Source: an uncultured Spirochaetales bacterium (GTDB lineage Bacteria; UBP6; UBA1177; JAKLFG01). From it: a stretch of DNA of 64,000 bases. Of this stretch, positions 3,963 through 58,151 are shown one piece after another; the stretch's first letter is position 1, and each line of letters opens with the position of its first letter. The stretch lies in contig CAYPQK010000001.1 of assembly GCA_964412895.1 (NCBI GenBank), positions 5,041 to 69,040 of the forward strand, in the 5' to 3' direction. A program made the position numbers and the translations under genes. The notes under the pieces were generated by a model. It had not been told where the DNA came from. It made no database searches and saw only the letters and a program-made list of their open reading frames with translations.

Positions 3963-4453
3963 GTTATGATACTCCTGCGTGTCATGTCGAAGATCTCTAT
4001 TTTTGTCACCGCGCCTTTGTTCAGCGAGATGAGCGCATAGGTCTGTTTTCCGTTGATGCCGGCGCGACCCAGAGAACCGGGATTGAGGTAAAGGACGCCC
4101 TCTTTTTCGCAGACGAGCGGTTCATGGGTGTGGCCGAAGATGACCACGCGCGGCCGGTAGGCGGCGAGTTCCGCGGCGTTCGATGCCATGATGCGGTGCG
4201 GCGCGGTGAGGTTGTGGACCAGAAAGAAGCGGACGCCGTCGATGTCGGCCCGGATGGTCTCGGGGAGATCGCGCAGGGTCGCGTCGGTGTTGCCGCGGAC
4301 CGCGTGAACGGTGTCGAAACAGTGGAGAAAGGTAAGCGTCCGATCATCGCCGATGTCGCCGGCGTGAAGCACCGTGTCGGCCGGGATATCGCAGATCCAG
4401 TCGGGGAGCGTCCCGTGCGTATCCGAAATGACAAGCACCCTTTTCATAGACAA
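3950..4453 (-). CDS. Metallophosphoesterase, YfcE/MJ0936 family
   Basis: Calcineurin-like motifs VISDTHG, HAGD, RGNTD and GHTHEP are present. Confidence 0.85.
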   Translation of the reverse strand: MSMKRVLVISDTHGTLPDWICDIPADTVLHAGDIGDDRTLTFLHCFDTVHAVRGNTDATLRDLPETIRADIDGVRFFLVHNLTAPHRIMASNAAELAAYRPRVVIFGHTHEPLVCEKEGVLYLNPGSLGRAGINGKQTYALISLNKGAVTKIEIFDMTRRSIITWPD

Positions 4454-4539
4454 AAACCTCCCGCAGCGACGCGACTATAACACGCGGCGGCGCACAAGTC
4501 AAACCGACCGGAAAGGTTATGGGGGAGGCGAAGGAGGGG

Positions 4540-24962: not shown

Positions 24963-25007
24963 CACTCCATTCTATGGTTTTTTTACCAAACGAGGGGGAG
25001 AATGATC

Positions 25008-36488: not shown

Positions 36489-36539
36489 GGTTATCATCCG
36501 CAACCGGTTTCGATAGTGAACCATGAGTGGGAGTATAGC

Positions 36540-39500
36540 ATGAAGCGTATCGTTGTTGCTCTTATCTGGATTATGTTCCTGTCCCTCGTAGTAGGCGGCT
36601 GTTCCACCAAGGATCAGTGTAACGCCGACACCGACTGCAAGACGGGCTACGCCTGCGGTGACGACAAGAAGTGTCACGAGATACAGGTGGCGCTCCTCTT
36701 CCAGGACATCGCCGACGGTCAGACCCTCACGGTCGCCGACGATCTGGACAAGAGCGACGAGGCCATCCAGATCAATGTCACCGTTGCCGCGCAGGCGACG
36801 GCCGGCTCGATAAAGGACGGCACGGCGATCACCCTCGAGGTGAAGAGTTCCGCGGCCGAGACCTCCGACGGCGACACCGTGAACGGCACCGCCGCGACCG
36901 CGACGAAAAGCTATGCCGGGATACTCGTCAACGGCTTCGCCCGTTTTCTCAATATCCCCTTCGCGGAAGGACAGCATACCGTGACCGCCTATCTGACCCT
37001 GAGTCCCGCCATCAAGGTGACGGCGACCCTCACCGCCACCTATGAACAGACCGATACGCTGGTCATGCGCTACTATAAAGGCGGCACCACTCCGACGATG
37101 CTCGAAGGGGCGACGCTCGACGACAACGACGATCTCAACAAAGAGGCGGCGAATTTTCAGGTGAAAATGGAAGCGGTGACCACCGGGTATGCCGACGGGC
37201 AGGTGGTCGAGATATTCATCGAAGGCTACAGCATCACATGGGCGCCGGCCATCATAGAGGACGGCGTGGCGTCGTTCCCGTCGTTCGTCGTGCCGATATG
37301 GGCCGACATCGTGATGCGGGTGAAGGTGGCCGATGTCGAGGATACGCTCGCCTTCAGCGCCGTTTCGGCGGAGTCCTGCGGCTTTGCGCTCGATATCCAG
37401 AACAACGACCGGTTCGGCATGGCCGACGATACGAGTGCCGGACTCAGCGGTCTCCAGAAGATGCTCACCATCAGCGATGTCACCCTCTGCTCTACCGGTT
37501 CCGAGATAGAGATATACATCGACGGCGTGCCGGGCACCGACGAACCTGACGAAACGCTGACTCTCGGCGCGGCGTCGGTCCAGCAGTCGATCACCCTGCC
37601 CGAAAGCGCGAACCAGACCGATACCCGCACCGTCACGGTGGTGATGAAGGATGACGACAGCTCGGCGACCGGCCAGATGACCGTCACCGGTCTGTTCGTC
37701 GACATCACGGCGCCGACACTGAGTGTCACTGCGCCGCTTGATAACACCACCCTTACCCCGGTCGACGACACCAATACTTCGCTGGAAGGGGTCCAGATAG
37801 CGGTCACCGGTTCGGCATCCGACTCGTTGTCGGACGAGGTCACGGTCGAGGTGCGCGACGGCACGACGCTGTTGGGCGATACGACCGGTACCGGCGACTA
37901 CTCCGTGGACGATGTCTCCTTCACCGCGACCAACGAGGCGCTGACGCTCGCGGTCACCGCCCGCGACGCCATCGGCAACGAAACGGTCGTCGAGGTCCCG
38001 CTCAAGGTCTATGTGAACGATCCGGTGATAGCCTTCCAGACCATCTGCGCCCGGACCCCGGTCATGAATATGCAGCTTTCGTCGGCCGACGACGGCGACC
38101 AGCTCGCCGGCGGCGTCCAGTGCGCCGTCATCGTCCGGACCACCGACATCGAATCGGCCTCGACCGAGGTGTCGCTGAATATCAACGATGAAGATCCGAT
38201 AGTCGAAACGATAGGGACCGGCGGCCTCACGCTGTTCGACATGGTCACCCTGCCCGACGGCGAGGATTCGCTCACGGCCCGGGTCATGCATCTGGGGACC
38301 GCATACCAAACCGGGATCACCGTGCAGGTCGATGCGACCCTGCCGGTGGTGACGCTCACGCTCACCCCGACGGTCGACGGCGGGTTCGCGCAGTCGGTCG
38401 ACGCCGACTTCGCCTTCTCGTGCAGCGAAGCCGATTGCGAATACAGCTACCGTATCGACAGCGGAGCTTTGTCGGCCTACGCGACGACCGCCACCGCCGA
38501 ATACACCGCGCTGGCCGAAGGGCTTCATACCTTCGCCGTTCAGGCCCGCGACCCGTTCGGGAATGTCGGCGATCTGACCGTCTTCAACTGGACGATCGAT
38601 CACACGGCGCCCGCCGCCCCGACGGTGACCGGAGTAACGCCGACCAACGATACGACCCCCGAATGGTCGTGGAACACCCCGACCGGCACGGTCGAATTCC
38701 GTTACAGCACCGACCAGACGAACTGGACGACGACCGCCGTCACCGCCTTCACCCCGGCCCCGGCGCTCGCCGAGGGCGACCAGATACTCTATGTGCAGGG
38801 CCGTGACGCCGCCGGCAACTGGTCGGCGAGCGGATCGTTCACCATCACCATAGACACCACCGCCCTTTCCGCCCCGGTCGTGAGCGGCACCACGCCGACC
38901 AACGACACCACCCCCAAATGGTCGTGGGACGCGATAACCGACGCGGTCGAATATCGCTACAGTTACACCGACGGCTCCGGCTGGACGACGACCGCCGACA
39001 ACTTCTTCATTCCGGTCACGGCGCTCACCGCGGGCGACCACACCCTCTTCGTTCAGGCCCGCGACGCGGCGGAGAACTGGTCCGACAGCGGCTGGTTCAC
39101 CATCACCATAGACCTCACCGCTCCCGCCGCCCCGGAGGTGCTCGGCACCACGCCGACCAACGACACCACGCCGAACTGGTCGTGGATACCGGTCGCCGAC
39201 GCGGTCAACTACCGCTACAGCTACGATGAGATGACTTGGACCGAAACCGTCGATACGACCTTCACCCCGACCACGCAGCTCGCCGCGGGGACTTATACCC
39301 TTTTCGTTCAGGCGCAGGATGCCGCCGGCAACTGGTCGCTTTCGGGATCGAAGGAGGTTGTGATCGACCTGTCGACGCCCAATGCGCCGGTGGTTACCGG
39401 CGTAACGCCGACCACCGATACGACGCCGACCTGGTCATGGGGCGCGGTGACCGACGCGGTCGAATACCGCTACAGTTACACCGACGGCTCCGGCTGGGCG

Positions 39501-42500
39501 ACGACGACCGCTCTTTCCTTCACGCCGTCCGCGGCGCTCGCCGAGGGCTTTGTCACGCTCTTTGTGCAGGCCCGCAACGGCGTCGGCACTTGGTCGGGCA
39601 GCGGGCTTTTCACCATCGAGATAGATATCACCGCCCCGGCGGCGCCGACGGTGACCGGCATAACGCCCACCAGCAACACCCAGCCGACTTGGTCGTGGGA
39701 CACCCCGACCGACGCGGTCGAGTTCCGTTACAGCTACGACGAATCTTCGTGGACCGTTACGACGGCCAATTCTTTTACCCCGGGCAGTGCGCTGATCGAC
39801 GACGCCTATACCCTTTATGTCCAAGCCCGCGACGCGGTCGGCAATTGGTCGACGAGCGGATCGTTCGAGATCGTGGTGGACACCGAGGCGCCGGTCGCGC
39901 CGACGGTGACCGGTACCACGCCGACCAACGACACGACGCCAACTTGGTCGTGGAATACCCCGGTCGGCGCGGTCAACTTCCGCTACAGCTACACCGATGG
40001 ATCGGGCTGGACCGAAACAACCGGCACCAGCTACACCGCCGCCCCGGCCCTTACCGCCGGTACCTACACGCTCTATGTGCAGGCCGCCGACGCTACCGGT
40101 AACTGGTCGACGAGCGGCAGTTTCGCCATCACGATAGACACCACCGCGCCGACGCTGGTTATCGGTGCGCCGTCGGCGACCGTTGCGAAGAACGGGACCG
40201 ATGTGACCTATACCGTCACTTACTCCGGCGCCGACACCGTGACGCTGGCGAACGGCAACATCACGCTCAACGCGACCGGCGGCGCCTCGGGCTCCGTCGC
40301 AGTGACCGGCACCGGCACGGTGACCCGCACCGTGACGATATCGAACCTGACCGGGAACGGCACGCTCGGCATCAGCATCGCGGCCGGAACGGCGAGCGAC
40401 ACGGCGGGGAACACCGCCCTCGCGGCCGGTCCGTCGGCCACCTTCACGGTCGATAACACCGCGCCGACCGTGGTCATCGATCCGGTCAATGCCTGCACCC
40501 GCCGGACGACCGGCACGATCTCGTTCACCGTGACCGGCGCGACCACCACCACCTGCCGGTTCGACACCCCCGCCGGGCTCGGCACACCGGGCGCCTGCGG
40601 CGGCTCCTACGGATATACCCTCGTCGATGGCGACGGCACCTATACCCTCACCGTCACGGCGACCGACGATGCCGGCAACAGCGGCTCGGACGATGCCTTC
40701 TTCTCGCTCAACACCACCACGCCGACCGTCCAGTGGTTCCTGCCGGCCAGCGGCACCAGCTACAAGGCCGGTTCTGCGGTGCCGAGTTTCGTCTACCGCA
40801 CCAAGAACCTCGAGGCGGGCGAAATGGTCGAGATCATAGATGCTGACACCGGACTTGCCTTGGCCAGCGGGATCACCGCCGGATCGCTCTGCAACGCGAC
40901 CGAGGATGTCTCGATACCGCTCGATCTGCCCGACAAGTGCGGCACCTACAAACTCTACGCCAAGGTCAACGACGGCGTCGACTCCGTTGATCGCTACACC
41001 GATAATCTTACGGCACTTCCGGCGACCCAGCGTACCTACACCTTCGACCGCGACGAGCCGGTCATCTCCTCCTTCGTGGTGAATAACGACGCCGACAGCA
41101 ACAATGTCCTCATCTCGACCGAGGATGCCGACGGCATCGCGGGCAACGGGATGCAGGCCGATATCACCATCACGGTACAGGACGCCATCGACATCGGCCG
41201 CACCGTGACGCTCCGCAACAAGACGACCGGCAACACCTACACCGCGACGGTCGTGGGCGATAAAACCGCCACCTTCACCGGCATCACGATACCGGAAGGG
41301 ATCAACTCCTTCGGCGCGACGCTGGTCGACTGCGGCGGCAACACCTCCGCCGAGAGCGCGAAGACCATCACCGTCGATACCACCCCGCCGAGCGTCCTGT
41401 TCCAAGGCCCGACCGGCGTGACGCCGGGCCATCCGCTCTGGCTCACCTCGCGCGATGGCACCGTGGTCGGCGACGAACTGATCGGACAGGAGCTGAAGTT
41501 CAAGATAACGGGCGACTGGGATAACGCCACCCCGGTGGTCAAGCATTTCGTGTACGACTATGCCGATGCGCCCGTGGGTGCGGCCCATACCTATACCCTC
41601 GGCGAAATGGACATCGTCGGCACCGAGGTGAGCATCGACCTCGACGGCTCGGACGATCCCGCCGCGCCGCTCGCCTACAACAAACACAAGTTCGAGATCA
41701 CCGTCGAGGACGCGAACGGCAACATCCGCGTCGCCTCGCGCACCTACGAGGGCGACCCCAAGATCCCGAACGCCGTCATTTCCTATCCGACCGACGAACT
41801 GGTACTCGATGTCACAAAAGATGAGGACGCGGTCGCGTCGGGCGTCCAGTTCACGCTGCACCTCGATCTGACCAAGCTCGCCACCCCGACCGGCACCGAC
41901 TCGACCATCGATATCCTCGCGATACCGATAACGGCGCTCGGCGGCACCGAGGATGGTACCCGCAGCCGCAAATCGTGGAACGGTTTCATCGCCGACACCG
42001 ACGGCGCCGCTCAGACCTTCCCGAACGACGGCACCTTCCTGCGGCTCGGTGACGGCTTCTGGCGCCTGACGGTCAAGGTGACCGACGACCACCAGAATGT
42101 CTACGACACCGCTCTCCTGCCGGTCGCTCAACAGATCGATGTCGATGTGGTGACCGATGTTGCCTCTTCGTCGCTCTATCTCAGTAACGATAAACTCATC
42201 AACGGTACCCAGACCGCCCCGACATGGCTCAACAGCAACGACGGCGGTCCCACCTACGATCTGTATGTCGAGACCGATTCCCCGAACGGCACGAACAACG
42301 CCTGCATAAATGTCAACGCCGGAGGCGACATCTGCGCTGATGTGGACGCCGGCCGTGCCGAATTCACCGCGGTGGCGCTCACCACCGGCGGGGTCGAGAA
42401 CACCATCGTGTTGACGGTCAACAACGGCGTTGCGGTCGCGACCGACACCTACTATGTCCGCGCCGACAACACCGATCCGACGCTCGATCCGGCGACCGAT

Positions 42501-44597
42501 GTCAATCCGGAGCCCTATGTCCACGGCGCCGGTATCTGGGAGATCGGCTACGGTTATGACGACGACATCGACCATGACACCACCGCGATACTCGAACTCG
42601 ACGGCGCCTCGGTGAACCGGCTCATCTTCGTCATCGGCAACATCGAGGATGTGGCGGGCTACACGACCCACGGGACCGTCGTCCTGACCCCGGTCGACGC
42701 GATCGGCGGGACCACCACCGTCAATATCGCCGAGGACGGCGCCGACATGATGGCCGAATTCACGAACCTCACCTTCGAGGACAGCGTCATCGGCGGTCAG
42801 ACCGACATCGAGATGCTGGTGACGATAACCGAACAGCCCTCCGGCAACACCTACACCAAAACGATCTTCGTCCATGTCAATCTGGAGAAACCCGAAGGTA
42901 TCACCCCGACCGTGACCACCGATCCGGCCCGCGGCGAATCTTTCGTTCAGTGGAATGCCGTCGTCGGCAACAATTCGGCCTACGCCGGTGCGTTCCAGAA
43001 CCGCGTGTACGAATATCAGGTGAAGTATGAACAGTATGGCGGCGCCTGTTCGCTCGATGACAGCGAAAGTGCGTTCGACACCGGCGTCGCGATCACTCCG
43101 CTGGCCGACTTCTCGGTGGCCGATCCGTCGCTCAACGGCGATGATTTCGTCGCGCCCAAAGCGGCGGGCGAAGCGCAGAACTACATGTTCTACCTAAAGA
43201 AACGGTCGAATATCGCCCTCACCCAGACCGCCGACATCCACCGGAACGGCGATCCCTACTGCTTCGCGGTCCGCGCCAGCGACGGCATCTATGCGCAGGA
43301 CGGCACGATACTTGTGACAAATACCTCGCCCATCTTGTCTACCAATGTTGTGGATAAGGGAGCGATACAGTTGACCTCTAATGAGCTGATAGCAACGGCC
43401 GCGGGTGCCCATTCAACCATGAATATCAAGAATATGGGCGACATCAACGGCGATACCAAGACCGATTTTGTCATTTCCGATTCGGGTCGGCAGAAAGCGT
43501 ATGTGTTCATCAGCAACGCGGTAGGCGCTCCGACAAAACTGGAACTGGTCAATCCGGTGGATGTCGGTATCACCTCTTTCGGGTATCGTCTCGCCCTCGC
43601 CGACCTTAATGGTGATGGATTCACGGATGTTCTGGTAAGCGATGTCGGCACGAAGAGCATCCATATTTATTATGGTATAGCCAATTCGGTCAATACCGCT
43701 CGCGGCGATAAGATCACCTTTGTCGATACCATATCCGACCTTTCTGGTATCGGCGATTTCAATGGCGACGGATGTCATGATCTTGTTGTCGGGCAGGCAT
43801 CGTATGACGATCCGGGGAATGCGGCCCCCGGCGACCAGACGGGGCGGGCTTTCGTGGTTTATGGTGACGACAAAGGCGCCGCGGGAAAGACCTGCATCGG
43901 CGATTATACTACGCAGGTCGGCGTCTCTTATCTCGGTTCAGCCGCCGGCGAACGGTTCGGATACAATGTCCGGAAAATCGGGAACATCAAGAACGAAATG
44001 AATGGCACCGTGCCCTACGGTTGTTTTGTCGGCGGACATTATGACAATGTCAATCCGGCATCCGCCAAGATCACTAAGGCCAAAGTGTTCTATGGTTCCG
44101 CTGCTCCGGTCGGCGGCAATATCACCTCCTATGATGTCACCGTTAACGGTCTTGCTCAACTTCGCACCCTCTTCTTCGGGAAACTCAACGGTGACGATTT
44201 CTCCGATTTCGGCATCATTGACAGCGGTAAGATAAAATTCTTCTACGGGTCGGCCGCCGGTACCGTTTTCCCGGGCGTATGGACCGAAGGGACCAATCAG
44301 ATCACCCGTAGCGACATCATGGATGAAGTGGCGGGCGTCGAAAGCGGCGTGTGGGGATTGGGCAGTTCCGGATATGCCGAAGATATCAACGACGATGGGC
44401 TGACCGATTTCTTCATCAACGGAGAAAAGGATCAGTATATGTATAGCGGGATGGGCACCTTCTTTACGATGCACCCCGCTCTCTATATGGGTCTTCCCAT
44501 AGGGGCAGGCAGTTCACAGTCGACGATCCTTTCCTACGGACTGGTGGTGTGTAACCGCAACACCGATGCCGGTAATTGTATGTTGTATTATCGTTAA
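36540..44597 (+). CDS. Giant (2693 aa) surface adhesin-like lipoprotein with tandem Ig-like repeats and C-terminal FG-GAP/VCBS repeats
   Basis: GGGAG RBS. Signal plus lipobox VGGC. Six tandem repeats of about 85 aa (TPTNDTTPxWSW...YRYSxxDxxxW...). C-terminal GDxNGDGxxD integrin-alpha-like repeats. Confidence 0.85.
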   Translation: MKRIVVALIWIMFLSLVVGGCSTKDQCNADTDCKTGYACGDDKKCHEIQVALLFQDIADGQTLTVADDLDKSDEAIQINVTVAAQATAGSIKDGTAITLEVKSSAAETSDGDTVNGTAATATKSYAGILVNGFARFLNIPFAEGQHTVTAYLTLSPAIKVTATLTATYEQTDTLVMRYYKGGTTPTMLEGATLDDNDDLNKEAANFQVKMEAVTTGYADGQVVEIFIEGYSITWAPAIIEDGVASFPSFVVPIWADIVMRVKVADVEDTLAFSAVSAESCGFALDIQNNDRFGMADDTSAGLSGLQKMLTISDVTLCSTGSEIEIYIDGVPGTDEPDETLTLGAASVQQSITLPESANQTDTRTVTVVMKDDDSSATGQMTVTGLFVDITAPTLSVTAPLDNTTLTPVDDTNTSLEGVQIAVTGSASDSLSDEVTVEVRDGTTLLGDTTGTGDYSVDDVSFTATNEALTLAVTARDAIGNETVVEVPLKVYVNDPVIAFQTICARTPVMNMQLSSADDGDQLAGGVQCAVIVRTTDIESASTEVSLNINDEDPIVETIGTGGLTLFDMVTLPDGEDSLTARVMHLGTAYQTGITVQVDATLPVVTLTLTPTVDGGFAQSVDADFAFSCSEADCEYSYRIDSGALSAYATTATAEYTALAEGLHTFAVQARDPFGNVGDLTVFNWTIDHTAPAAPTVTGVTPTNDTTPEWSWNTPTGTVEFRYSTDQTNWTTTAVTAFTPAPALAEGDQILYVQGRDAAGNWSASGSFTITIDTTALSAPVVSGTTPTNDTTPKWSWDAITDAVEYRYSYTDGSGWTTTADNFFIPVTALTAGDHTLFVQARDAAENWSDSGWFTITIDLTAPAAPEVLGTTPTNDTTPNWSWIPVADAVNYRYSYDEMTWTETVDTTFTPTTQLAAGTYTLFVQAQDAAGNWSLSGSKEVVIDLSTPNAPVVTGVTPTTDTTPTWSWGAVTDAVEYRYSYTDGSGWATTTALSFTPSAALAEGFVTLFVQARNGVGTWSGSGLFTIEIDITAPAAPTVTGITPTSNTQPTWSWDTPTDAVEFRYSYDESSWTVTTANSFTPGSALIDDAYTLYVQARDAVGNWSTSGSFEIVVDTEAPVAPTVTGTTPTNDTTPTWSWNTPVGAVNFRYSYTDGSGWTETTGTSYTAAPALTAGTYTLYVQAADATGNWSTSGSFAITIDTTAPTLVIGAPSATVAKNGTDVTYTVTYSGADTVTLANGNITLNATGGASGSVAVTGTGTVTRTVTISNLTGNGTLGISIAAGTASDTAGNTALAAGPSATFTVDNTAPTVVIDPVNACTRRTTGTISFTVTGATTTTCRFDTPAGLGTPGACGGSYGYTLVDGDGTYTLTVTATDDAGNSGSDDAFFSLNTTTPTVQWFLPASGTSYKAGSAVPSFVYRTKNLEAGEMVEIIDADTGLALASGITAGSLCNATEDVSIPLDLPDKCGTYKLYAKVNDGVDSVDRYTDNLTALPATQRTYTFDRDEPVISSFVVNNDADSNNVLISTEDADGIAGNGMQADITITVQDAIDIGRTVTLRNKTTGNTYTATVVGDKTATFTGITIPEGINSFGATLVDCGGNTSAESAKTITVDTTPPSVLFQGPTGVTPGHPLWLTSRDGTVVGDELIGQELKFKITGDWDNATPVVKHFVYDYADAPVGAAHTYTLGEMDIVGTEVSIDLDGSDDPAAPLAYNKHKFEITVEDANGNIRVASRTYEGDPKIPNAVISYPTDELVLDVTKDEDAVASGVQFTLHLDLTKLATPTGTDSTIDILAIPITALGGTEDGTRSRKSWNGFIADTDGAAQTFPNDGTFLRLGDGFWRLTVKVTDDHQNVYDTALLPVAQQIDVDVVTDVASSSLYLSNDKLINGTQTAPTWLNSNDGGPTYDLYVETDSPNGTNNACINVNAGGDICADVDAGRAEFTAVALTTGGVENTIVLTVNNGVAVATDTYYVRADNTDPTLDPATDVNPEPYVHGAGIWEIGYGYDDDIDHDTTAILELDGASVNRLIFVIGNIEDVAGYTTHGTVVLTPVDAIGGTTTVNIAEDGADMMAEFTNLTFEDSVIGGQTDIEMLVTITEQPSGNTYTKTIFVHVNLEKPEGITPTVTTDPARGESFVQWNAVVGNNSAYAGAFQNRVYEYQVKYEQYGGACSLDDSESAFDTGVAITPLADFSVADPSLNGDDFVAPKAAGEAQNYMFYLKKRSNIALTQTADIHRNGDPYCFAVRASDGIYAQDGTILVTNTSPILSTNVVDKGAIQLTSNELIATAAGAHSTMNIKNMGDINGDTKTDFVISDSGRQKAYVFISNAVGAPTKLELVNPVDVGITSFGYRLALADLNGDGFTDVLVSDVGTKSIHIYYGIANSVNTARGDKITFVDTISDLSGIGDFNGDGCHDLVVGQASYDDPGNAAPGDQTGRAFVVYGDDKGAAGKTCIGDYTTQVGVSYLGSAAGERFGYNVRKIGNIKNEMNGTVPYGCFVGGHYDNVNPASAKITKAKVFYGSAAPVGGNITSYDVTVNGLAQLRTLFFGKLNGDDFSDFGIIDSGKIKFFYGSAAGTVFPGVWTEGTNQITRSDIMDEVAGVESGVWGLGSSGYAEDINDDGLTDFFINGEKDQYMYSGMGTFFTMHPALYMGLPIGAGSSQSTILSYGLVVCNRNTDAGNCMLYYR
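38600..40140 (+). repeat. Six tandem repeats of about 255 bp (85 aa) inside the giant adhesin gene
   Basis: Repeated protein motif APAAPTVTG(V/T)TPTNDTTPxWSW...(E/N)(F/Y)RYS...FTP..AL..G.YTL(F/Y)VQA(R/Q)DA(A/V)GNWS.SGSF.I.ID. Confidence 0.8.
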
Positions 44598-44611
44598 ATC
44601 GGGAGGAACTG

Positions 44612-44740
44612 ATGTATAAGAAGCCTTGCGTCCTGGAAGAAAAGACCATAGAAAAAAGGATCCTTTTCGCCTGCACCCTTGATACGCCGGAAGACGAGTT
44701 CTGCGTAGACAGCATTTCTACCGCCGGCAGTCAAGGCTGA
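44612..44740 (+). CDS. Small ORF (42 aa) encoding a candidate RiPP precursor peptide (not in the ORF track)
   Basis: GGGAGGAA RBS 5 nt upstream of the ATG. Sequence MYKKPCVLEEKTIEKRILFACTLDTPEDEFCVDSISTAGSQG with 3 Cys. Locally lower GC. Sits 15 nt after the giant gene and 19 nt before the peptidase gene. Confidence 0.5.
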   Translation: MYKKPCVLEEKTIEKRILFACTLDTPEDEFCVDSISTAGSQG

Positions 44741-44759
44741 ACGACTCAGCTTTTCTTCT

Positions 44760-45203
44760 ATGAATAATTTTTCCATCGACGAACTCATTGCAACCTTCTC
44801 TACCGATGGCGGTCTCGGCGTGGTGCTGTTCGGCGCACAGAACTCCATGCTGCCTTCCATTCGCCCCGGAGAACTCATCCACATCGCGCCGGTGGATCGC
44901 GACCGTCTGCGTTCCGGCGATGTGGTGGTCTTCCGCACCGGCGAAGTGCTCGTGGCGCACCGGCTCGTCTGGAAACGCGGCTTCGTCGCGCGGACCAAGG
45001 GCGACAACAATCCCTATTGCGACCCAGCCATACCGGTGTTCGACATCGTCGGCGTGGTCGAAGGAAAGAAGTCGCGGTGGGCGTTCTGCTACTATCTCGT
45101 GCGGAACCGGCTTCGCCACTACACGCCCCGTCCGGCGCGACTGCTGTTCTCGGAGTTGAAGAATAAACTGCTCGGCCGGAAACGGTGGATGGAACACCTA
45201 TGA
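44760..45203 (+). CDS. Clan SF (signal-peptidase I / LexA-like S24/S26) serine peptidase-like protein
   Basis: Motifs GAQNSMLPSIRPGELI, GDVVVFRTGEVLVAHRLVWKRG and VARTKGDNNP resemble the Ser-Lys dyad boxes of S24/S26 peptidases. Its 3' end overlaps the rSAM gene. Confidence 0.55.
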   Translation: MNNFSIDELIATFSTDGGLGVVLFGAQNSMLPSIRPGELIHIAPVDRDRLRSGDVVVFRTGEVLVAHRLVWKRGFVARTKGDNNPYCDPAIPVFDIVGVVEGKKSRWAFCYYLVRNRLRHYTPRPARLLFSELKNKLLGRKRWMEHL

Positions 45204-46213
45204 CCATCAAACGCCCCGGCATCCTTTTCGAGGTGGCGGACCGCTGCGATGCGCGGTGTCTGCACTGTTACCAGCCGCGGGAATGCGCTCACCGGCTCAT
45301 GTCGCTCGCCGAGATCGAACGGGTGCTCGACATCCTTGCCGATAACGAATATCTCGATGTCACCTTCAGCGGCTACGAGCCGTTCACCAATCCCGACCTG
45401 TTCAAGATCATCGAGGCGGCCCGCAAGCGCCGGTTCTTCGTCAATCTCAAGACCAACGGTCTCCATCTCACCGCCGACAATGTCGCGCGGCTGAAGGCGC
45501 TCCATATCGGCACGGTCCATGTCTCCCTCTATTCGCCCGACCGCGATGAACACGACCGCGCCGCCGGTGTCCCCGGGGCGTACGACCGTATCATGACCGG
45601 CCTCGACCTTCTGCGTGAGGCAGGCATAAAGGCCATGCTTGCCGCGCCGCTTTTGCATCCGCTCCCCGATCTCGCGCGGCTCACCGCCTTTGCCAAAGAG
45701 CGCGATCTGCAGCTGGTCATCGACTACGGTTTGTTCAGTTCGTTCGACAAACGGCCCGAAGTCGAGGCGGTGAAGCTGACCGAAGCGGAGCTTGAGACGG
45801 CGATCCGTTTTCAGTACGGCATAGAAGGCGACGAGATGAATTTCTATGCGCCGAAGGAGGCTTCGTTCCTTTGCCACTACGGTGATCCTTCCACTTTCCG
45901 CATAGACTGCGCGGGCGGCATTTATGCCTGCGGCAAATGCACCGTGCCGCTCGGCAACCTGCTGACCGACGATTTTGCCGCGTTGGTGCAGAGGGCGGCG
46001 GCGGAACGGCCGCGCATCATCCGCGACCGGGAATGCAACGACTGCGACCTGTTCCCGTACTGTAGCCCCTGTCCCGCCGAAGCGTTATTGGACGGCGGCT
46101 TTCTCTGCGGCTGTTCGGCGGTACGCAAACGGATCGCCCAGATCAAGCGCCGGATCGGCAGCGCAGGAACAAAAAGGACCGGCGATGCCGCGGAGGGTCC
46201 GTGTCAGGTTTGA
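45185..46213 (+). CDS. Radical SAM enzyme with C-terminal SPASM domain (peptide-modifying maturase-like)
   Basis: CxxxCxxC motif in RCDARCLHCY. A C-terminal Cys cluster (CAGGIYACGKC...CNDCDLFPYCSPC) is typical of SPASM/twitch domains. Confidence 0.85.
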   Translation: MDGTPMTIKRPGILFEVADRCDARCLHCYQPRECAHRLMSLAEIERVLDILADNEYLDVTFSGYEPFTNPDLFKIIEAARKRRFFVNLKTNGLHLTADNVARLKALHIGTVHVSLYSPDRDEHDRAAGVPGAYDRIMTGLDLLREAGIKAMLAAPLLHPLPDLARLTAFAKERDLQLVIDYGLFSSFDKRPEVEAVKLTEAELETAIRFQYGIEGDEMNFYAPKEASFLCHYGDPSTFRIDCAGGIYACGKCTVPLGNLLTDDFAALVQRAAAERPRIIRDRECNDCDLFPYCSPCPAEALLDGGFLCGCSAVRKRIAQIKRRIGSAGTKRTGDAAEGPCQV

Positions 46214-46953
46214 AGACCCGCTGTTTTTCGATAGCAGGCTATCTCCTGAATATATCGTATGCCCCCCGGATGATCTTTCCCGCGCCGTTCCGGTTGTTTG
46301 AGACCGCAACACCGAATGAACTTCTTCTTCCTATAACCACCCAAGAACATTCCGATATCAACGACATTCGACGAGTCAACGGCGCATGGCGGATATCACG
46401 GCACCGGCCGTACCTCTATCTGCCCAAAGTGCTGGCCTACGAAGGCTTCGAGCGCGAGGAACTGTTCCTGCTCGTCCATTCCTGCTTTCTTGTTGATCGA
46501 GGGGGATGGAGCCATCTCTTTCTCGCCACTTCGGGGACCGGGAAGAGTACGTTGGCCCGCAAGATGCGCGGCCTCATGACCGGCGGCAACGACGAGACCA
46601 ATGTCCTCTGCCGTCGCGCCGGTATTCTTTACGGTTATTCGACCCCCTTCTACACGATATCGAAGCTCAAGAACGCCGTCATCTCCAATATCTCCGCGCC
46701 GCTCAAACGGGTCTATCTCCTGCGCAAGACCGAAGAGCCGTCGCGTATCGGTGAGCCGGTCGCCGGAGATGTACTGTGGCGCTATCTGGTCGAGGGACAG
46801 GTGAGCACACCGTACAGTAAACGCGAATATTTTTCCGCCTACCACCGCATGGTGAACGACCTCTGCGACTGCCACCCCGTCCATCCTTTCCATCACAACT
46901 TGACCGATCCGCCCGAACGGATCGCGGCGCTCCTCGAAAGCGGCGACCGGTAA
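46201..46953 (+). CDS. HPr kinase/phosphorylase-like (HprK C-terminal domain) P-loop protein
   Basis: P-loop LATSGTGKSTLA in an HprK-like context. GTG start overlapping the rSAM stop. Exact start uncertain (alternative ATG at 46270). Confidence 0.55.
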   Translation: MSGLKTRCFSIAGYLLNISYAPRMIFPAPFRLFETATPNELLLPITTQEHSDINDIRRVNGAWRISRHRPYLYLPKVLAYEGFEREELFLLVHSCFLVDRGGWSHLFLATSGTGKSTLARKMRGLMTGGNDETNVLCRRAGILYGYSTPFYTISKLKNAVISNISAPLKRVYLLRKTEEPSRIGEPVAGDVLWRYLVEGQVSTPYSKREYFSAYHRMVNDLCDCHPVHPFHHNLTDPPERIAALLESGDR

Positions 46954-46973
46954 AACATACTAAAAGAATCGTT

Positions 46974-47031
46974 AGTAGGCCCCGGCCTACTTGTTGTCGA
47001 TAGGCGTCGGCCTACAAGTGTTGCTTTTTTG
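46974..47031 (+). terminator. Probable rho-independent terminator ending the PqqD-to-HprK-like operon
   Basis: Two GC hairpins (GTAGGccccggCCTAC and TAGGCgtcgGCCTA) followed by TTGCTTTTTT. Confidence 0.45.
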
Positions 47032-47132
47032 ATTGCGGAGATTACTTCTTAGAATCATAGAGCTTTTCTATTAAAGATCATCAAGGATGTTTATTTGCAG
47101 AGTATTTTCAAGCTGTTATAACATTTTTTCTG

Positions 47133-47161
47133 TTGACAAAGTTCCCTTACGAGGATATGCT
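47133..47161 (+). promoter_or_regulatory. Sigma70-like promoter upstream of the second small peptide ORF
   Basis: TTGACA, 17 nt spacer, TATGCT. Confidence 0.45.
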
Positions 47162-47202
47162 TGCGCTGTTTTGTTTGTTGAAAAAAGATATTTTTTGAAA
47201 TC

Positions 47203-47352
47203 ATGATGAATTCTCGCGGCTACGAAAAACCGGTTATAATTGAAGAACTCGTACTGGAAAAAGAACTTCTCTTTGCCTGCCTTTTTCATAACCGGAATCA
47301 GTGCGAACCTATCTGCCGCAACCCCGGGCAAAGCGCTGGGGAGCCTTGTTGA
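47203..47352 (+). CDS. Small ORF (49 aa), second candidate precursor peptide paralogous to 44612..44740 (not in the ORF track)
   Basis: MMNSRGYEKPVIIEELVLEKELLFACLFHNRNQCEPICRNPGQSAGEPC. Shares Y-x-K-P-x-[VI]-[LI]-E-E-x-x-[IL]-E-K-x-[IL]-L-F-A-C with the first peptide. 4 Cys. Lies in an AT-rich intergenic region. No clear SD. Confidence 0.42.
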   Translation: MMNSRGYEKPVIIEELVLEKELLFACLFHNRNQCEPICRNPGQSAGEPC

Positions 47353-47441
47353 CACCGTCGAACACCGGTAACCTCCGCTCTTCTTGCTTTTCCGAACCGA
47401 AGAAGATATAAATCACCGGTACTCTTTGGCGTGGCAGGGAA

Positions 47442-48593
47442 ATGAAGAAGAACGCCGGAAATGAAAAAACGACCATACTTATAGTGGAAGACGATCCCGG
47501 ACTATCGAAGCTCATCGACATCTCTCTCAAAGCTCACGGGTGGGGAACGATAGCGGCCTTTTCGGGCGAAGAGGCGTTGGCGATGTCCCGGGACCGGCGG
47601 CCGCGGCTGATCCTCCTTGACTACTCACCCCCCGATATGTCGGGGTCCGACTTCATCGACGCCGCCGAACGGATAGCGTTCCCGTTGCCCCCTTTTATAG
47701 TGGCGACCGGCCGCGGAGACGAACGGATAGCGGTCGAGATGATGAAACGGGGCGCCCGCGACTACATCGTCAAGGATTCTCAGTTCCTCAACACTTTGAG
47801 CATAGCGGTCGAACGGGTATTGGAACAACTGGAAACGGAGCGGCGGCTGAAAGAGACCGAACGACTCCTGCGGGAACACGACGCGGCGCTCATCGCCTCC
47901 CGGGAACAGCTCCAGATATTCGCCGAACGGTTGCTCATCGTACCGGAACAGGAGCGGGCCCGCATCGCCCGCGAGATCCACGACCTGTTGGCGCAGGACC
48001 TGATCCGCCTGAAGATAGATCTGGTCTGGCTGAACGGACAGTTCGCCAAGATGACCCCGCTTCCCGTTCTTCTCAAAGAACGGGTCGTCGAGATGATCCA
48101 GATAGCGGACGGCGCGATCACCTGCGTGCAAAAGATCGCCACCGAACTGCGTCCGGCGGTGCTCGACAGTCTCGGGCTGTGCGCCGCGGTGGAATGGCAG
48201 GCCCGTGAATTTCAGGAACGGACCGGCATTCAGTGTCTGGTGAAAGTGCCGGAAAAAGATCTTCCGGTGGACAGGGATTTCACTATTGCCATTTTTCGTA
48301 TCCTGCAGGAGAGTCTGACCAATGTACGGCGGCACGCCAACGCAACGCGGGTGGATGTCCTGCTACGGCAAAAGGCCGGATATCTGTTCCTCAGGGTACA
48401 GGATAACGGATCCGGCATAACACCGACGGCGCTCCACGATCCGCTTTCCATCGGGCTTACCGGTATGCGGGAGCGGGCGGTGCTTCTCGGTGGTCGGATC
48501 GAGATCACCGGCAAGCCGGGGGCGGGGACGACGGTCGAGGTCCGGTTGCCGCTTTCGAAAATAGGAAAAAAACGGGAGGCGGCTCCGTTATGA
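47442..48593 (+). CDS. Hybrid REC-HisKA_3-HATPase_c sensor kinase (NarL-partner type, no extracytoplasmic sensor)
   Basis: N-terminal receiver ILIVEDDP...LLDYSPPDM. HisKA_3 H-box ERARIAREIHDLLAQ. HATPase G-box. Confidence 0.85.
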   Translation: MKKNAGNEKTTILIVEDDPGLSKLIDISLKAHGWGTIAAFSGEEALAMSRDRRPRLILLDYSPPDMSGSDFIDAAERIAFPLPPFIVATGRGDERIAVEMMKRGARDYIVKDSQFLNTLSIAVERVLEQLETERRLKETERLLREHDAALIASREQLQIFAERLLIVPEQERARIAREIHDLLAQDLIRLKIDLVWLNGQFAKMTPLPVLLKERVVEMIQIADGAITCVQKIATELRPAVLDSLGLCAAVEWQAREFQERTGIQCLVKVPEKDLPVDRDFTIAIFRILQESLTNVRRHANATRVDVLLRQKAGYLFLRVQDNGSGITPTALHDPLSIGLTGMRERAVLLGGRIEITGKPGAGTTVEVRLPLSKIGKKREAAPL

Positions 48594-49213
48594 ATATTCT
48601 GATCGCGGACGATCATGCCATTGTGCGGAAAGGGTTAGCCCAACTTTTGGTCGACGAGTTCCCCGGCGTGTCGATCGGCGAGACCGCCGGCACGCAGGAA
48701 ACGCTGGCCGAGCTGTCGCTCCGGCGGTGGGATGTATTGGTGCTCGACATCTTCATGCCGGGGTCCGGCGGACTCACGGTGCTTGACGAAGTGAAGCGCC
48801 AACAGCCGCGACTGCCGGTGCTGGTCCTGAGCACCGCGCCGGAAGAACAGATGGCGGCCCGGGTCCTGAAAGCGGGGGCGAGCGGCTATCTCAATAAACA
48901 GTGCGCTCCCGAGGAATTGGTCAATGCGGTCAGAAAGATACTCGCTCACGGCCGCTATGTCAGCGTCACGATGGCGGAACGGCTCGCCGCCGATATCGGC
49001 CGGCCCGAACGATCCCTGCAGGAAGAACTCTCCGATAGGGAATACACCGTCCTACGGATGCTCGTGGCGGGCAGATCGATCAAAGATATCGCGGCCGAAC
49101 TGAATATCAGCCCGAAAACGGTGAGTACCTTCCACACCCGGATATGGGGCAAGCTCCGCGTCACCAACGACGCCGACATGGTCCGTTACGCGCTGGATCA
49201 CGGCATCTCCTGA
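48590..49213 (+). CDS. NarL/LuxR-family response regulator (REC plus HTH_LuxR)
   Basis: ILIADDH...VLVLDIFMPG receiver. C-terminal LuxR HTH LSDREYTVLRMLVAGRSIKDIAAELNISPKTVSTF. ATGA overlap with the upstream kinase. Confidence 0.9.
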   Translation: MNILIADDHAIVRKGLAQLLVDEFPGVSIGETAGTQETLAELSLRRWDVLVLDIFMPGSGGLTVLDEVKRQQPRLPVLVLSTAPEEQMAARVLKAGASGYLNKQCAPEELVNAVRKILAHGRYVSVTMAERLAADIGRPERSLQEELSDREYTVLRMLVAGRSIKDIAAELNISPKTVSTFHTRIWGKLRVTNDADMVRYALDHGIS

Positions 49214-49341
49214 CCGTTTCACGCTCTTCGTAAGCGCAATCCTACAAAAGAAAAGGCGTCGTCCTACAGAAAAGCGACCGTGAAAAAGATATTCTGTTCC
49301 CAGTGAGGTGAATGGTCCGGGAATGGAAAATGGAGGTCGTC

Positions 49342-50850
49342 ATGAAAGGAATTGTTGGGCTTGGCGCATGGTTGATGGCGGTTATGTTCGTCTCCTCCTG
49401 TGGGGGCGAGGAGCCGGAGCAGGAGGTTTTCGTTTCGCTTTCCGGCCGCACCGCGACGGCGCTCGCCACGGTAAGCAATATCATAGAGGTCAATCAGAAA
49501 GCGGCCAACTTCGGCATTGCGGTCACCTCGGTGGGCGATGTGAACGGTGACGGTTATGGCGATGTGGCCGTCGGGGCCAATTTTTATGACAACGGGCAGA
49601 TCGACGAGGGGATGCTGTTCATCTATCACGGAACGGCGACCGGGATCAAGACCGCCTATGCCATACGGCTCGAATCGAATCAAAAGGATGCCCGTCTCGG
49701 CTGGTCGGTCGCCTCTGCGGGCGATGTGAACGGCGACGGCTACGGCGATATGATCGTCAGCGCGTACCGGTACGACAGCGGCCAGACCGACGAAGGAGTG
49801 GCGTTCGTATATCACGGTTCTGCGACCGGCATCGGTCCTGTCTACGCCCGACGGCTCGAAGTTGATCAGGCGAACGCCTCTTTCGGCATTTCGGTCGCGG
49901 CGGCGGGCGATGTGAACGGCGACGGCTACGGTGATGTGATCGTCGGTGCCTTCTTGTACGACAACGGACAGAACGACGAAGGGGCCGCCTTCATCTATCA
50001 CGGATCGGCGACCGGCATCGGTGCGCAGTATGCCCGGAGACTGGAAATGGATCAGGCGGGCGCGTGGTTCGGTTATTCGGTCGCGTCGACGGGTGATGTG
50101 AACGGCGACGGGTACGACGATGTGGTCGTCGGCGCTTTTCTGTACAACAACGGACAGAACGACGAAGGGGCCGCGTTCATCTATCATGGTTCGGCGACCG
50201 GCATCGGCACGACTGCGGACCGCAGGATCGAACCGGATCAGGCGGGCGCCTACTTCGGCTATTCGGTCGCGTCGGCGGGCGATGTGAACGGCGACGGCTT
50301 CGACGATGTGGTCGTCGGCGCTTATTTGTACGACCACGGACAGACCGACGAAGGAGCCGCTTTTATGTATCACGGCTCGGCGAATGGCTGCGGTACGGTA
50401 TACGACCGGATGATCGAACCGGATCAGGCGGGAGCGAATTTCGGCGCCGCGGTCGCGTCGGCGGGCGATGTGAACGGTGACGGGTACGGCGATGTGGTCG
50501 TCGGCGCCCGCTCGTATGACGGCAACAAGACCGACGAGGGGGCCGTTTTCATCTATCGCGGCTCGGCTAACGGCCTGAATGTAGCGACGAACCAGATGTT
50601 CGAATCGAATCAGGCGGATGCCTTTTTCGGCCGGTCGGTCGCGTCGGCGGGCGACATGAACGGCGACGGCTACGGCGATGTGCTGGTGGGGGCAAGTCTG
50701 TACGATAACGGCCAATATGACGAAGGCGCCGCGTTCTTCTATCACGGTTCGTCGTCCGGGCTCTGTATAGGCCGTTGCCCGGAAGATAGCGGCACTTCCA
50801 GCGAAACGACAACGGAACTCTCCTCCCCTCCCAAAAATAAGCGGCACTAA
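49342..50850 (+). CDS. FG-GAP repeat (integrin-alpha-like 7-bladed beta-propeller) lipoprotein
   Basis: GGAGG RBS. Signal plus lipobox VSSCG. Seven about 61-aa repeats with GDVNGDGYGDVxVGA...DEGAAFIYHGSATG. Confidence 0.8.
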   Translation: MKGIVGLGAWLMAVMFVSSCGGEEPEQEVFVSLSGRTATALATVSNIIEVNQKAANFGIAVTSVGDVNGDGYGDVAVGANFYDNGQIDEGMLFIYHGTATGIKTAYAIRLESNQKDARLGWSVASAGDVNGDGYGDMIVSAYRYDSGQTDEGVAFVYHGSATGIGPVYARRLEVDQANASFGISVAAAGDVNGDGYGDVIVGAFLYDNGQNDEGAAFIYHGSATGIGAQYARRLEMDQAGAWFGYSVASTGDVNGDGYDDVVVGAFLYNNGQNDEGAAFIYHGSATGIGTTADRRIEPDQAGAYFGYSVASAGDVNGDGFDDVVVGAYLYDHGQTDEGAAFMYHGSANGCGTVYDRMIEPDQAGANFGAAVASAGDVNGDGYGDVVVGARSYDGNKTDEGAVFIYRGSANGLNVATNQMFESNQADAFFGRSVASAGDMNGDGYGDVLVGASLYDNGQYDEGAAFFYHGSSSGLCIGRCPEDSGTSSETTTELSSPPKNKRH

Positions 50851-50862
50851 GAAGAGGTCACG

Positions 50863-51486
50863 GTGAAGATATTGATCGCGGATGATCATGCGGTCGTGCG
50901 GAAAGGATTGGCCCGTCTTCTGGTCGACGAATTTCCCGATGTAACGATAGGCGAAGCCTCCGATTCTCAGGAAACGCTGAACGAGATATCCTTTCAACGG
51001 TGGGACCTGCTGGTGCTCGATCTTTTCATGCCGGGGATCGGCGGATCGGCGGTGCTCGACGAAGTGCGCCGGCTGTATCCGAAAATGCCGGTGCTGATTC
51101 TCAGCACCGCGCCGGAAGAACAGATGGCGGCGCGGATGCTTAAAGCGGGCGCGAACGGCTATCTCAACAAACAGTGCGCTCCCGAAGAGTTGGTGGGCGC
51201 GGTCAGAAAGGTTCTGGCGGGCGGCCGGTATGTCAGTTCCGGCATGGCGGAGCGGTTGGCCGAACAGATGGACCGCACCAGAAAAAGTCCGCAGGAAGAG
51301 CTCTCCGACCGGGAATACACCGTACTACGGGCGTTGGTCGCGGGCAGATCGGTCCGAGACATAGCGCAGGAATTGGGCATCAGCCCCAAAACGGTCAGTA
51401 CTTTTCACACCCGGATCTGGCGCAAACTGGGCGTCCGAAACGATGCCGACATGATCCGCTATGCACTGGGAAAAGGGTGGTCCTGA
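50863..51486 (+). CDS. NarL/LuxR-family response regulator, paralog (about 75% aa identity) of 48590..49213
   Basis: Same architecture and near-identical motif blocks (STAPEEQMAAR, GYLNKQCAPEEL, LSDREYTVLR, ISPKTVSTFHTRIW). Confidence 0.9.
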   Translation: MKILIADDHAVVRKGLARLLVDEFPDVTIGEASDSQETLNEISFQRWDLLVLDLFMPGIGGSAVLDEVRRLYPKMPVLILSTAPEEQMAARMLKAGANGYLNKQCAPEELVGAVRKVLAGGRYVSSGMAERLAEQMDRTRKSPQEELSDREYTVLRALVAGRSVRDIAQELGISPKTVSTFHTRIWRKLGVRNDADMIRYALGKGWS

Positions 51487-51561
51487 TGTACTCACACATA
51501 ATGTTGCAAGTTGTTCTTTGTTTCGTTATAATCCAACGATCTTCAGGGAGGCTCGTTCAGC

Positions 51562-52434
51562 ATGAACCAGCTTAAAATATACACCGCACTGCGGGATGCG
51601 CAGTTCGAGAATCAGGTACATGCGCTCATCCACGCCAACGATCACGAGGCTCATCAGATACATCTCGACGACATCATCAACGATGTGCGGGCCTATGACG
51701 GCCTGTTCATCGTCGAGGAGAGTTATCACGGCATCCTTGAACTGATAGAGTTCCACAATTCCTGTAAATTCAATCTCTTGCCGGTCATCTTCGTGTTCGA
51801 TCCCAAATCGCCTGACAAAGAATGGGTGAACTCTGTTCGCTATCCCTATAAATACTTTGCCGTCGAGCACAAACTGTTGCCGCTCCTGTTCACCCGCATC
51901 GTCGCCCACATGGACGAACTGCGGCGCACCAAATTCAACGAATTCGTCCTTGAGCACCACAAACCGGTGCTGGAACCGTTCTTCAACGAGAAGCTCTCGT
52001 TCCGCGGGGCGTTGGGGCAGGCGCTCGCTCATCTGCTCGACTTCCTGTTCGCCGATAAGGGGTCCATCATGCTCCTCAACGACAAGGGGAATCTCGTCAT
52101 CGAGGCGTCGACCAAACCGCACCTCATCGGGCTGGAGGTGGTGCCCGATCCCAACTCGCCCGCGTGGAGCGTCATGGAAACGAAAAAGCCGTTGTTCGTC
52201 GAGGACATCTCGAAGGATCAGCGTTTCAAGAAGAAAAGCGACGGCTACAGCAAGGATTACTTTCTCATCGTCCCGATATTCTTGAACGGCGAGATCCACG
52301 GCGTGCTCAATCTCACCGACAAGATGGTGTCGCTCTTCTTCGACCGGAGCGACCTCCTGCGTGCCCGGAATTTTCTGCGGCTGTTGGAGCCGATGCTCGC
52401 CCTTCATAGCGGCATAGCGGTAGATATAACCTGA
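51562..52434 (+). CDS. GAF domain protein with degenerate N-terminal receiver-like region
   Basis: C-terminal GAF-like block GSIMLLNDKGNLVIEAS...PLFVEDISKDQRF...HGVLNLTDK. Confidence 0.6.
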   Translation: MNQLKIYTALRDAQFENQVHALIHANDHEAHQIHLDDIINDVRAYDGLFIVEESYHGILELIEFHNSCKFNLLPVIFVFDPKSPDKEWVNSVRYPYKYFAVEHKLLPLLFTRIVAHMDELRRTKFNEFVLEHHKPVLEPFFNEKLSFRGALGQALAHLLDFLFADKGSIMLLNDKGNLVIEASTKPHLIGLEVVPDPNSPAWSVMETKKPLFVEDISKDQRFKKKSDGYSKDYFLIVPIFLNGEIHGVLNLTDKMVSLFFDRSDLLRARNFLRLLEPMLALHSGIAVDIT

Positions 52435-58148: not shown

Positions 58149-58151
58149 ATC

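Follow-up and report, generated by a model that had tools for sequence, protein, structure and literature searches.

We analysed a 64,000-nucleotide stretch of the genome of an uncultured Spirochaetales bacterium (contig CAYPQK010000001.1, positions 5,041 to 69,040; hereafter the window), and in it a 42-codon open reading frame (ORF A) lying between the gene of a giant adhesin and that of a peptidase. [quoted passage not shown] We found that ORF A is a protein-coding gene under purifying selection, and we consider it likely that it is a translated precursor peptide gene, one of two paralogous substrates, peptides A and B, of the cassette encoded between them (Table 1). Three features support the RiPP-precursor reading: a leader/core pattern of conservation, the presence of a paralogue within the same cluster, and a precursor subtype that matches the subtype of the neighbouring radical S-adenosylmethionine (SAM) enzyme and ScmC-like protein.

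The frame runs from the ATG at 44612 to a TGA at 44738-44740, and its translation is exactly the one given in the preliminary description (MYKKPCVLEEKTIEKRILFACTLDTPEDEFCVDSISTAGSQG). It fills 129 nt of the 162-nt gap that the description had pointed out between the end (TAA) of the giant ORF at 44597 and the next gene start at 44760, and it ends 19 nt 5' of the peptidase gene. The lower GC content attributed to it was also found, at 0.50 compared with 0.60-0.62 for the genes of the peptidase, radical SAM enzyme and adhesin (the window as a whole has 0.595), and domain matches confirm the genes named downstream, an S24/S26 peptidase and a radical SAM enzyme. Two further statements held in part. 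The reported spacing of 5 nt between ribosome-binding site and ATG is correct for the GGAGG core, but the full GGGAGGAA (44601-44608) leaves just 3 nt (CTG), and the three Cys residues (C6, C21 and C31) are indeed present in peptide A, but only C21 and C31 are conserved in homologues. A TTG at 44576 was rejected as an alternative start, the extension overlapping the adhesin stop codon, being unconserved and lying 5' of the Shine-Dalgarno sequence. Gene sets derived from NCBI and Logan already contain a called protein identical to the 42-aa peptide, and one B-type orthologue carries the NCBI name ‘hypothetical protein’.

To follow the small ORFs in relatives, orthologues of the radical SAM enzyme with 55-85% identity were traced to their contigs, and scans of genomes and metagenomes added nine loci, mostly duplicates. 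Samples from anaerobic digesters and activated sludge are among the sources of such contigs. Every locus that reaches far enough upstream has a small ORF between the giant protein and the cassette (A-type examples are MYIKPMIVEERIIEKKLLFACYMSDEGCELEGGTLNTASEGL, MYIKPRVVEEKIIERRVLFACTLNDELCEMEGELLTKGSEG, (M)KYIKPQIIEEKIIESRLLFTCYLNDELCDAEGGMYNTASEGQ and MKYERPRIIDESNIDKRLVFACSLEPFGDGCDGCGSTSGSAECA), so that a homologous small ORF accompanies the radical SAM and peptidase genes wherever the sequence is long enough. Conservation is in frame: differences at codon positions 1, 2 and 3 number 213, 241 and 469 in an alignment of seven A-type sequences and 349, 284 and 566 in one of seven B-type sequences, the third position thus having about twice the differences of the other two. 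The proportion of nonsynonymous differences (pN) is well below that of synonymous differences (pS) in all pairs, as between L007 and L008 (pN 0.04, pS 0.52). Neither outcome that the preliminary description had named as refuting it, a lack of homologous small ORFs beside the homologous genes or a frame-shifted pattern of conservation, was observed. A GGAG(G) stands 5' of the A-type start in 11 of 11 distinct loci, and a search of 44300-47600 against Rfam matched no family. Because of the in-frame conservation, the excess of pS over pN, the conserved Shine-Dalgarno sequence and the absence of an Rfam match, we conclude that ORF A is a gene that codes for protein and is held by purifying selection.

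The peptides of this family are conserved in their N-terminal half and diverge beyond it. Mean pairwise identity is 0.55 over Y2 to C21 and 0.28 after C21, and between A and B it is 0.52 in the leader and 0.17 in the core, values for their C-terminal halves spanning 11-17%. The stretch Y-K-P...EE..EK..LFAC, for which the preliminary description had suggested a conservation check, proved to be the conserved part: A and B have in common the leader motif Y-x-K-P-x-h-h-E-E-x-x-h-E-x-x-h-L-F-x, ending at the invariant Cys21, and Y2, P5, E10 and C21 do not vary in any of the three subtypes, A, B and one more. In the variable half, C31 is invariant in a 15-sequence peptide alignment and nearly so in a second alignment. 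Most A-type cores have a Cys with an acidic neighbour in the form C-x3-D (C-x2-D in peptide A of the window), whereas the B-type cores have N or Q there, and a Ser or Thr near the C-terminus is kept in both types, within T-A-S-E-G in A and G-Q-S-x-G in B. A shared N-terminal segment followed by divergent, Cys-containing C-terminal segments corresponds to the leader/core architecture of RiPP precursors.

The family is rare. When a peptide profile was run against 1.84 billion representative proteins, it recovered ten real peptide clusters (at 50% identity), three of them new and more distant (MKERYVPPAIISEKKLELKVLYAGCALQDEFTDPCQENIGAS, MDYTKPQIIEEKIMTGTLLYACCQLINDTCEHDSAASGYGLC and MHYEKPTIKEEVVIRRELVFECALDPDDPFGDPGCGSSPSSPGS). 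The contigs of these three encode ScmC-like and radical SAM/SPASM proteins, a giant protein and usually an S26 peptidase, and peptide homologues at distant loci share 26-56% amino-acid identity. The 42-aa peptide A used as a lone homology query matched only itself, the word index being coarse for short peptides, and the peptide alignment as query recovered only peptides already seen in the loci. Among curated families, neither NCBIfam (even at E <= 10) nor Pfam contains a relevant match for the peptides.

Table 1. Features of the cassette and its surroundings in the window
Feature	Coordinates	Strand	Basis or remarks
Giant surface adhesin, 2693 aa as listed	36516..44597	+	ORF list; Big_13/FG-GAP Pfam matches on orthologues
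Shine-Dalgarno sequence GGAGG, 5 nt 5' of the precursor A ATG	44602..44606	+	Read from sequence
Putative precursor peptide A, 42 aa	44612..44740	+	Predicted leader about residues 1-20/21; predicted core about 21-42 with C21 and C31
Soluble S26-family (SipW/archaeal signal-peptidase-I-like) peptidase, 147 aa	44760..45203	+	Pfam Peptidase_S24 1.3e-4; TIGR02228 1.1e-12
Radical SAM enzyme with SPASM-type 7-Cys C-terminal domain, 337 aa, without N-terminal RiPP recognition element (RRE)	45200..46213	+	Pfam Radical_SAM 4e-23
P-loop protein of 250 aa with Walker A SGTGKST, a distant relative of ScmC and HprK-related kinases	46201..46953	+	
Terminator-like hairpin followed by U-run, after the ScmC-like gene	~46962..47030	+	Folding energy -24.6 kcal/mol (z = -2.84); L002 and L018 keep it
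Promoter-like TTGACA-17-TATGCT, 5' of precursor B	47133..47161	+	Consensus scan 10/12
Putative precursor peptide B, 49 aa, MMNSRGYEKPVIIEELVLEKELLFACLFHNRNQCEPICRNPGQSAGEPC	47203..47352	+	Paralogue of A with like leader and different core; found by motif scan
Hybrid histidine kinase (47442-48593) and LuxR-type response regulator (48590-49213)	47442..49213	+	Context only

The gene of peptide B lies between the ScmC-like gene and a hybrid histidine kinase gene and was overlooked in the preliminary description; its core contains three Cys. When the window and 25 loci were translated in all six frames and scanned with a hidden Markov model of the peptides, exactly two copies came up in the window, A and B, and all matches in the 25 loci are on the strand of the radical SAM gene and adjoin the cassette. 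Precursor B occurs in all related loci of sufficient length, either after the ScmC-like gene or between the radical SAM and ScmC-like genes. In the window it has no obvious Shine-Dalgarno sequence, and it is preceded by a 249-nt AT-rich spacer (46954-47202; GC 0.33-0.40) with a mean column identity of 88% among the window and the two closest loci, L002 and L018. This exceeds expectation, given pS of 0.47-0.69 in the adjoining B gene. Within the spacer, the -35 hexamer of TTGACA-17-TAT(G/A)CT is invariant and the -10 hexamer nearly so in the three sequences. From the conserved spacer, the terminator-like hairpin with its U-run and the conserved promoter, we therefore conclude that precursor B probably has its own regulated transcript. 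The approximately 100 nt between hairpin and promoter are conserved as well and may hold a regulator site.

Three enzymes are encoded between the two peptides. All eight homologues of the peptidase match the sigpep_I_arch (TIGR02228) and SipW models, and two of the eight also match the model of the nickel superoxide dismutase (Ni-SOD) maturation protease; the window protein itself, with a score of 48.1, falls just under the TIGR02228 cut-off of 51.85. Its catalytic signature is invariant, consisting of S29 (SMxP), H67 (HRL) and the GDN box G81-D82-N83. No transmembrane segment was found in it (maximum 19-residue Kyte-Doolittle mean 1.19), and it is therefore a soluble S26-type enzyme. It is the candidate leader peptidase. 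The radical SAM enzyme has Cys residues invariant in 10 sequences, both at the cluster motif (C16x3C20x2C23) and in the C-terminal domain (C225..G239x4C244..C279x2C282x5C288x2C291..C305). Its best solved relatives in a profile search of the PDB are SkfB (5e-12), PqqE in second place, and CteB, and the alignments to SkfB and CteB start only after the leader-binding RRE domains of those proteins. A Foldseek search with an AlphaFold2 model retrieved MoaA, CteB, SuiB, SkfB, anSME and PqqE, with CteB, SuiB and SkfB near the top. The barrel of this model is confident and its SPASM region poor, so that the SPASM assignment rests on the Cys pattern. A GTG at 45185 was considered as an alternative start of this gene and discarded, having no exact look-up match, while the called protein begins at the ATG at 45200.

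The third protein has an invariant Walker A motif, and Pfam ScmC (PF27840) is recorded on its orthologues. All nine ScmC-like proteins weakly match TIGR04249 (ScmC; best 7e-6) and TIGR04352 (HprK-related kinase A; best 1.5e-5), four of the nine match PEPCK_ATP, and the window protein reaches 19.4 bits against a TIGR04249 cut-off of 125. Judged from these scores, the ScmC-like proteins appear to be distant relatives of ScmC, not equivalogs. Their alignment as a profile query against the PDB gave only generic P-loop matches.

The same gene content persists in distant loci. Wherever a locus is long enough to tell, the cassette has as its neighbour a giant protein homologous to the adhesin, at identities as low as 28%; those of L025 and L021 align with the window adhesin at 61% identity over a part and 28% over the full length, and in L025 the adhesin lies downstream of the cassette instead of upstream. 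The radical SAM and ScmC-like proteins form three congruent clades with just 31-35% identity between them, each of which has its own precursor subtype. In the metagenomic relative L018 the cassette is duplicated (1722-5763), with two ScmC-radical SAM pairs and two precursor subtypes in the order adhesin, divergent precursor (MTVPYATPKIISEIAMSQKMIYAGCNIENDWDETDPCFSSPLTS), ScmC2, radical SAM 2, peptidase, radical SAM 1, ScmC1 and precursor B, while L025 has only the set of the second type. The conserved unit is therefore made up of a precursor, the ScmC-like protein, the radical SAM/SPASM enzyme and the giant adhesin, with the S26 peptidase present in most loci.

For the adhesin of the window the likely start codon is the ATG at 36540, from which the protein would begin with MKRIVVALIWIMFLSLVVGGC, a signal of lipoprotein type, and it has a conserved C-terminus ending in ...LSYGLVVCNRNTDAGNCMLYYR. 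At this end (44520-44597) is the motif L-S-Y-G-h-V-h-C-[ND]-[RK]-N-x-x-x-G-[NS]-C-x-L-Y-[YK]-x, which is kept in all homologues to 28% overall identity and includes two Cys eight residues apart; it may be an alternative substrate or a sorting signal.

We infer how the cassette would act, with respect to the peptide as radical SAM substrate, the type of cross-link, the part of the ScmC-like protein, the cleavage site and the biological role, from gene content and patterns of conservation. The conserved N-terminal half of each peptide, up to the invariant Cys21, would be the recognition (leader) segment, and the radical SAM/SPASM enzyme would modify the variable Cys-containing C-terminal half. 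The likeliest chemistry would be the formation of one or more thioethers between the conserved Cys and backbone carbons or the side chains of Asp, Glu or Asn close to them. Given the nearest relatives of the radical SAM enzyme and the conserved Cys with an Asp or Glu close by (C-x3-D, as most A-type cores have it), our best guess, a tentative one drawn by analogy, is cross-linking of the ranthipeptide and sactipeptide kind. The ScmC/HprK-like P-loop protein would contribute an ATP-dependent step, for example phosphorylation of the conserved C-terminal Ser/Thr, or would bind the leader or act as a scaffold, and the soluble S26 peptidase would cleave off the leader.

Several observations weigh against this scheme. 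The Pfam SPASM model does not match the radical SAM enzyme, though the 7-Cys SPASM pattern is present, and its NCBIfam radical SAM matches are all far under their cut-offs (best 76 bits, with cut-offs of 350-650), so the chemistry of the enzyme is not transferable from any characterised family. The relationship of the third protein to ScmC and HprK is seen in weak matches (E ~1e-5 at best), and its single-sequence AlphaFold2 model, with a predicted local distance difference test score of 32, is unusable. No RRE or PqqD domain was found in any cassette protein with Pfam or NCBIfam, the radical SAM enzyme begins directly at the cluster motif, and the window has no room for a separate PqqD gene; since the structure model failed, the N-terminal 90 residues of the ScmC-like protein may nonetheless hold a hidden RRE. 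Some RiPP classes do without an RRE. Depending on the member, the invariant Cys is preceded by A, T, N, K, G or E, and thus there is no clean motif for S26 cleavage. In the B-type cores the acidic residue after the first Cys is missing, no exporter gene was found within the cassette, and the strict linkage to the adhesin means that the enzymes may have another or an additional substrate.

Three other explanations of ORF A were weighed against the precursor reading. That it is a chance open frame in the spacer, or a non-coding regulatory element, we regard as highly improbable. Its shortness speaks for such an origin, and a complete ORF of at least 42 codons arose in 1.6% of shuffles of the 162-nt gap (0.1% with GGAGG in place), a result which suggests that chance is disfavoured, yet not decisively; conservation decides, since the third-position excess and the low pN of the seven A-type and seven B-type sequences effectively refute it, together with the conserved Shine-Dalgarno sequence, the homologues in distant loci and the lack of an Rfam match. 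A weak hairpin overlapping the stop codon of ORF A was considered as an attenuator and rejected for want of significance (z = -1.2) and because, on inspection, its downstream flank varies between loci. We also think it unlikely that ORF A is a genuine small protein which, instead of being a radical SAM substrate, assists the adhesin as chaperone, anchor or regulator while the three enzymes act elsewhere, for example on the C-x8-C-x-L-Y-Y motif at the adhesin C-terminus. The adhesin does adjoin at every locus, including those where its identity falls to 28% and the genes stand in another order, its conserved C-terminus with two Cys after hydrophobic residues loosely resembles L-L-F-A-C...C, and peptidase homologues match NF046067, SipW-type peptidases usually processing dedicated secreted proteins. 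However, paralogue B has the same leader without being beside the adhesin, and in several loci it lies between the radical SAM and ScmC-like genes. The peptidase has no membrane segment, so a Sec-exported lipoprotein would be out of its usual reach; precursors, unlike chaperones, typically join a conserved N-terminal half to a C-terminal half that contains Cys and is hypervariable; and the precursor subtype tracks the enzyme subtype.

There is, in our view, little chance that the peptide is instead a precursor like those of the PqqA, mycofactocin or QhpC systems, giving rise to a small redox cofactor or to a cross-linked subunit bound to an enzyme, and not to a secreted bioactive peptide. Exporter and immunity genes are absent from the cassette and PqqE is among the nearest solved relatives of the radical SAM enzyme, as a cofactor pathway might have it; the leader start Y-x-K-P-x-h-h-E may also be akin to the PqqA start W-x-K-P. 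Against this, the PqqE model gives 61 bits with a cut-off of 381, no dependent dehydrogenase is encoded nearby, and the cores contain neither a conserved Glu-x3-Tyr nor a C-terminal Val-Tyr and are hypervariable, which is unusual for cofactor precursors.

Among known systems, a close likeness is to the ranthipeptides and sactipeptides (PapA/PapB of freyrasin, CteA/CteB of thermocellin-SCIFF, SkfA/SkfB), in which a short precursor combining a conserved leader with a Cys-containing core is likewise encoded beside a SPASM/twitch radical SAM enzyme. PapB forms thioethers at Cys-X3-Asp/Glu sites (PMC9413430), and the C-x3-D of many A-type cores resembles these sites. The present system differs from these classes in that its radical SAM enzyme has no N-terminal RRE and its peptides have only two to four conserved Cys. 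In place of PqqD, an ABC transporter or a C39 protease, it has as partners an S26 peptidase and a P-loop protein that resembles HprK and ScmC, and the cassette is linked to a giant adhesin. None of the NCBIfam models for sactipeptides, ranthipeptides and SCIFF, nor those for StsB and CbpB, was matched at cut-off by enzyme or peptide.

The only curated pairing of a ScmC-type protein with radical SAM/SPASM enzymes is SynChlorMet (Scm; TIGR04249-04251), where ScmC occurs with ScmE and ScmF. Here, by contrast, there is one radical SAM enzyme instead of two, the ScmE and ScmF models give about 50 bits with a cut-off of 400, no PqqD homologue was found, an S26 peptidase is present, and precursors are evident. 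To our knowledge, the TIGRFAMs description of the Scm cassette identifies no precursor. Homologues of HPr kinase in lasso peptide clusters transfer phosphate to a Ser of the precursor, and this phosphate may then be glycosylated by a nucleotidyltransferase (PMC8498205). Our cassette resembles those with lasso kinases (paeninodin, pseudomycoidin) in having a P-loop protein of putative HprK lineage within a probable RiPP cluster and a Ser/Thr near the C-termini of A and B. By analogy, the ScmC-like protein may phosphorylate this conserved residue. The homology to HprK-related kinase A is weak here, however, and neither a lasso cyclase nor B1/B2 genes are present. In one locus (L011, 6507-7487), the most divergent of clade 1, the ScmC-like gene has immediately after it one for an NTP_transf_5 nucleotidyltransferase, which recalls the lasso pair of kinase and nucleotidyltransferase.

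The arrangement of a small peptide beside a SPASM radical SAM enzyme is also that of PqqA/PqqE(/PqqD), and PqqE is the second-best sequence match in the PDB; PqqD, PqqB and PqqC are all absent here, and the core has no conserved Glu/Tyr pair (E-x3-Y). The cassette peptidase has the Ser, His and GDN boxes of SipW/archaeal signal peptidase I and of the soluble S26 protease that matures Ni-SOD, but unlike SipW and archaeal signal peptidase I it has no membrane anchor and is encoded inside a peptide-modification cassette. A literature search on SynChlorMet, on ScmC, and on HprK in combination with radical SAM and RiPP yielded no relevant paper in the library searched. On these comparisons, the system looks like a radical SAM/SPASM RiPP pathway, yet it belongs to no curated class, and both its set of parts and its tie to the adhesin are unusual. 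We know of no family, and matched none, in which a SPASM radical SAM enzyme without recognisable RRE, a P-loop protein of putative ScmC/HprK lineage and an S26 peptidase without membrane segment occur together.

The surroundings of the cassette vary among relatives. A histidine kinase and response regulator follow it in the closest loci (L002 and L018) but not in L005 and L008. In one sub-lineage, represented by L005 (8099-11639), L006 (2379-5890) and L008 (4091-7603), what comes after the cassette, where the window has its two-component system, is a PilZ-domain protein, a second, unrelated radical SAM protein (367 aa, Fer4_12 and Radical_SAM) and a protein of about 680 aa without Pfam match. 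Signalling genes are dense 3' of the cassette in the window (47442-52434 and 54141-60260). They include the hybrid histidine kinase, which carries a receiver at its N-terminus, a pair of LuxR-type response regulators on either side of an FG-GAP repeat protein (49312-50850), a GAF protein, a multi-PAS kinase of 1335 aa and a PAS-GGDEF cyclase; L002 shows synteny for the FG-GAP protein and the regulators. Elsewhere in the window, a 741-aa protein (25002-27227, + strand) has a whole-protein Pfam Disintegrin match (E 2.5e-20) in which no single stretch passes, and a divergent InlB B-repeat; the Disintegrin match is unusual for a bacterial protein and may be an artefact of Cys-rich repeats.

With this analysis, a guess from raw sequence has become a well-supported rare gene family and a testable cassette of two putative substrates and three enzymes, which could reveal the role of ScmC-type proteins in peptide maturation and what a ScmC substrate looks like. 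The invariable linkage to the adhesin suggests a role at the cell surface over antibiosis, which would be unusual for this class of radical SAM/SPASM enzymes. It is conceivable, though we put it forward as speculation, that both modified peptides are functional partners of the giant adhesin (for example a cross-linked small subunit, ligand or signal by which it is controlled or completed) and not free antibiotics. If so, this would be an adhesin-coupled radical SAM peptide system in which a SPASM enzyme lacking an RRE is combined with an ATP-dependent enzyme like HprK or ScmC and with an S26 leader peptidase of the cytoplasm, and it would supply the missing precursor type for ScmC-containing cassettes.

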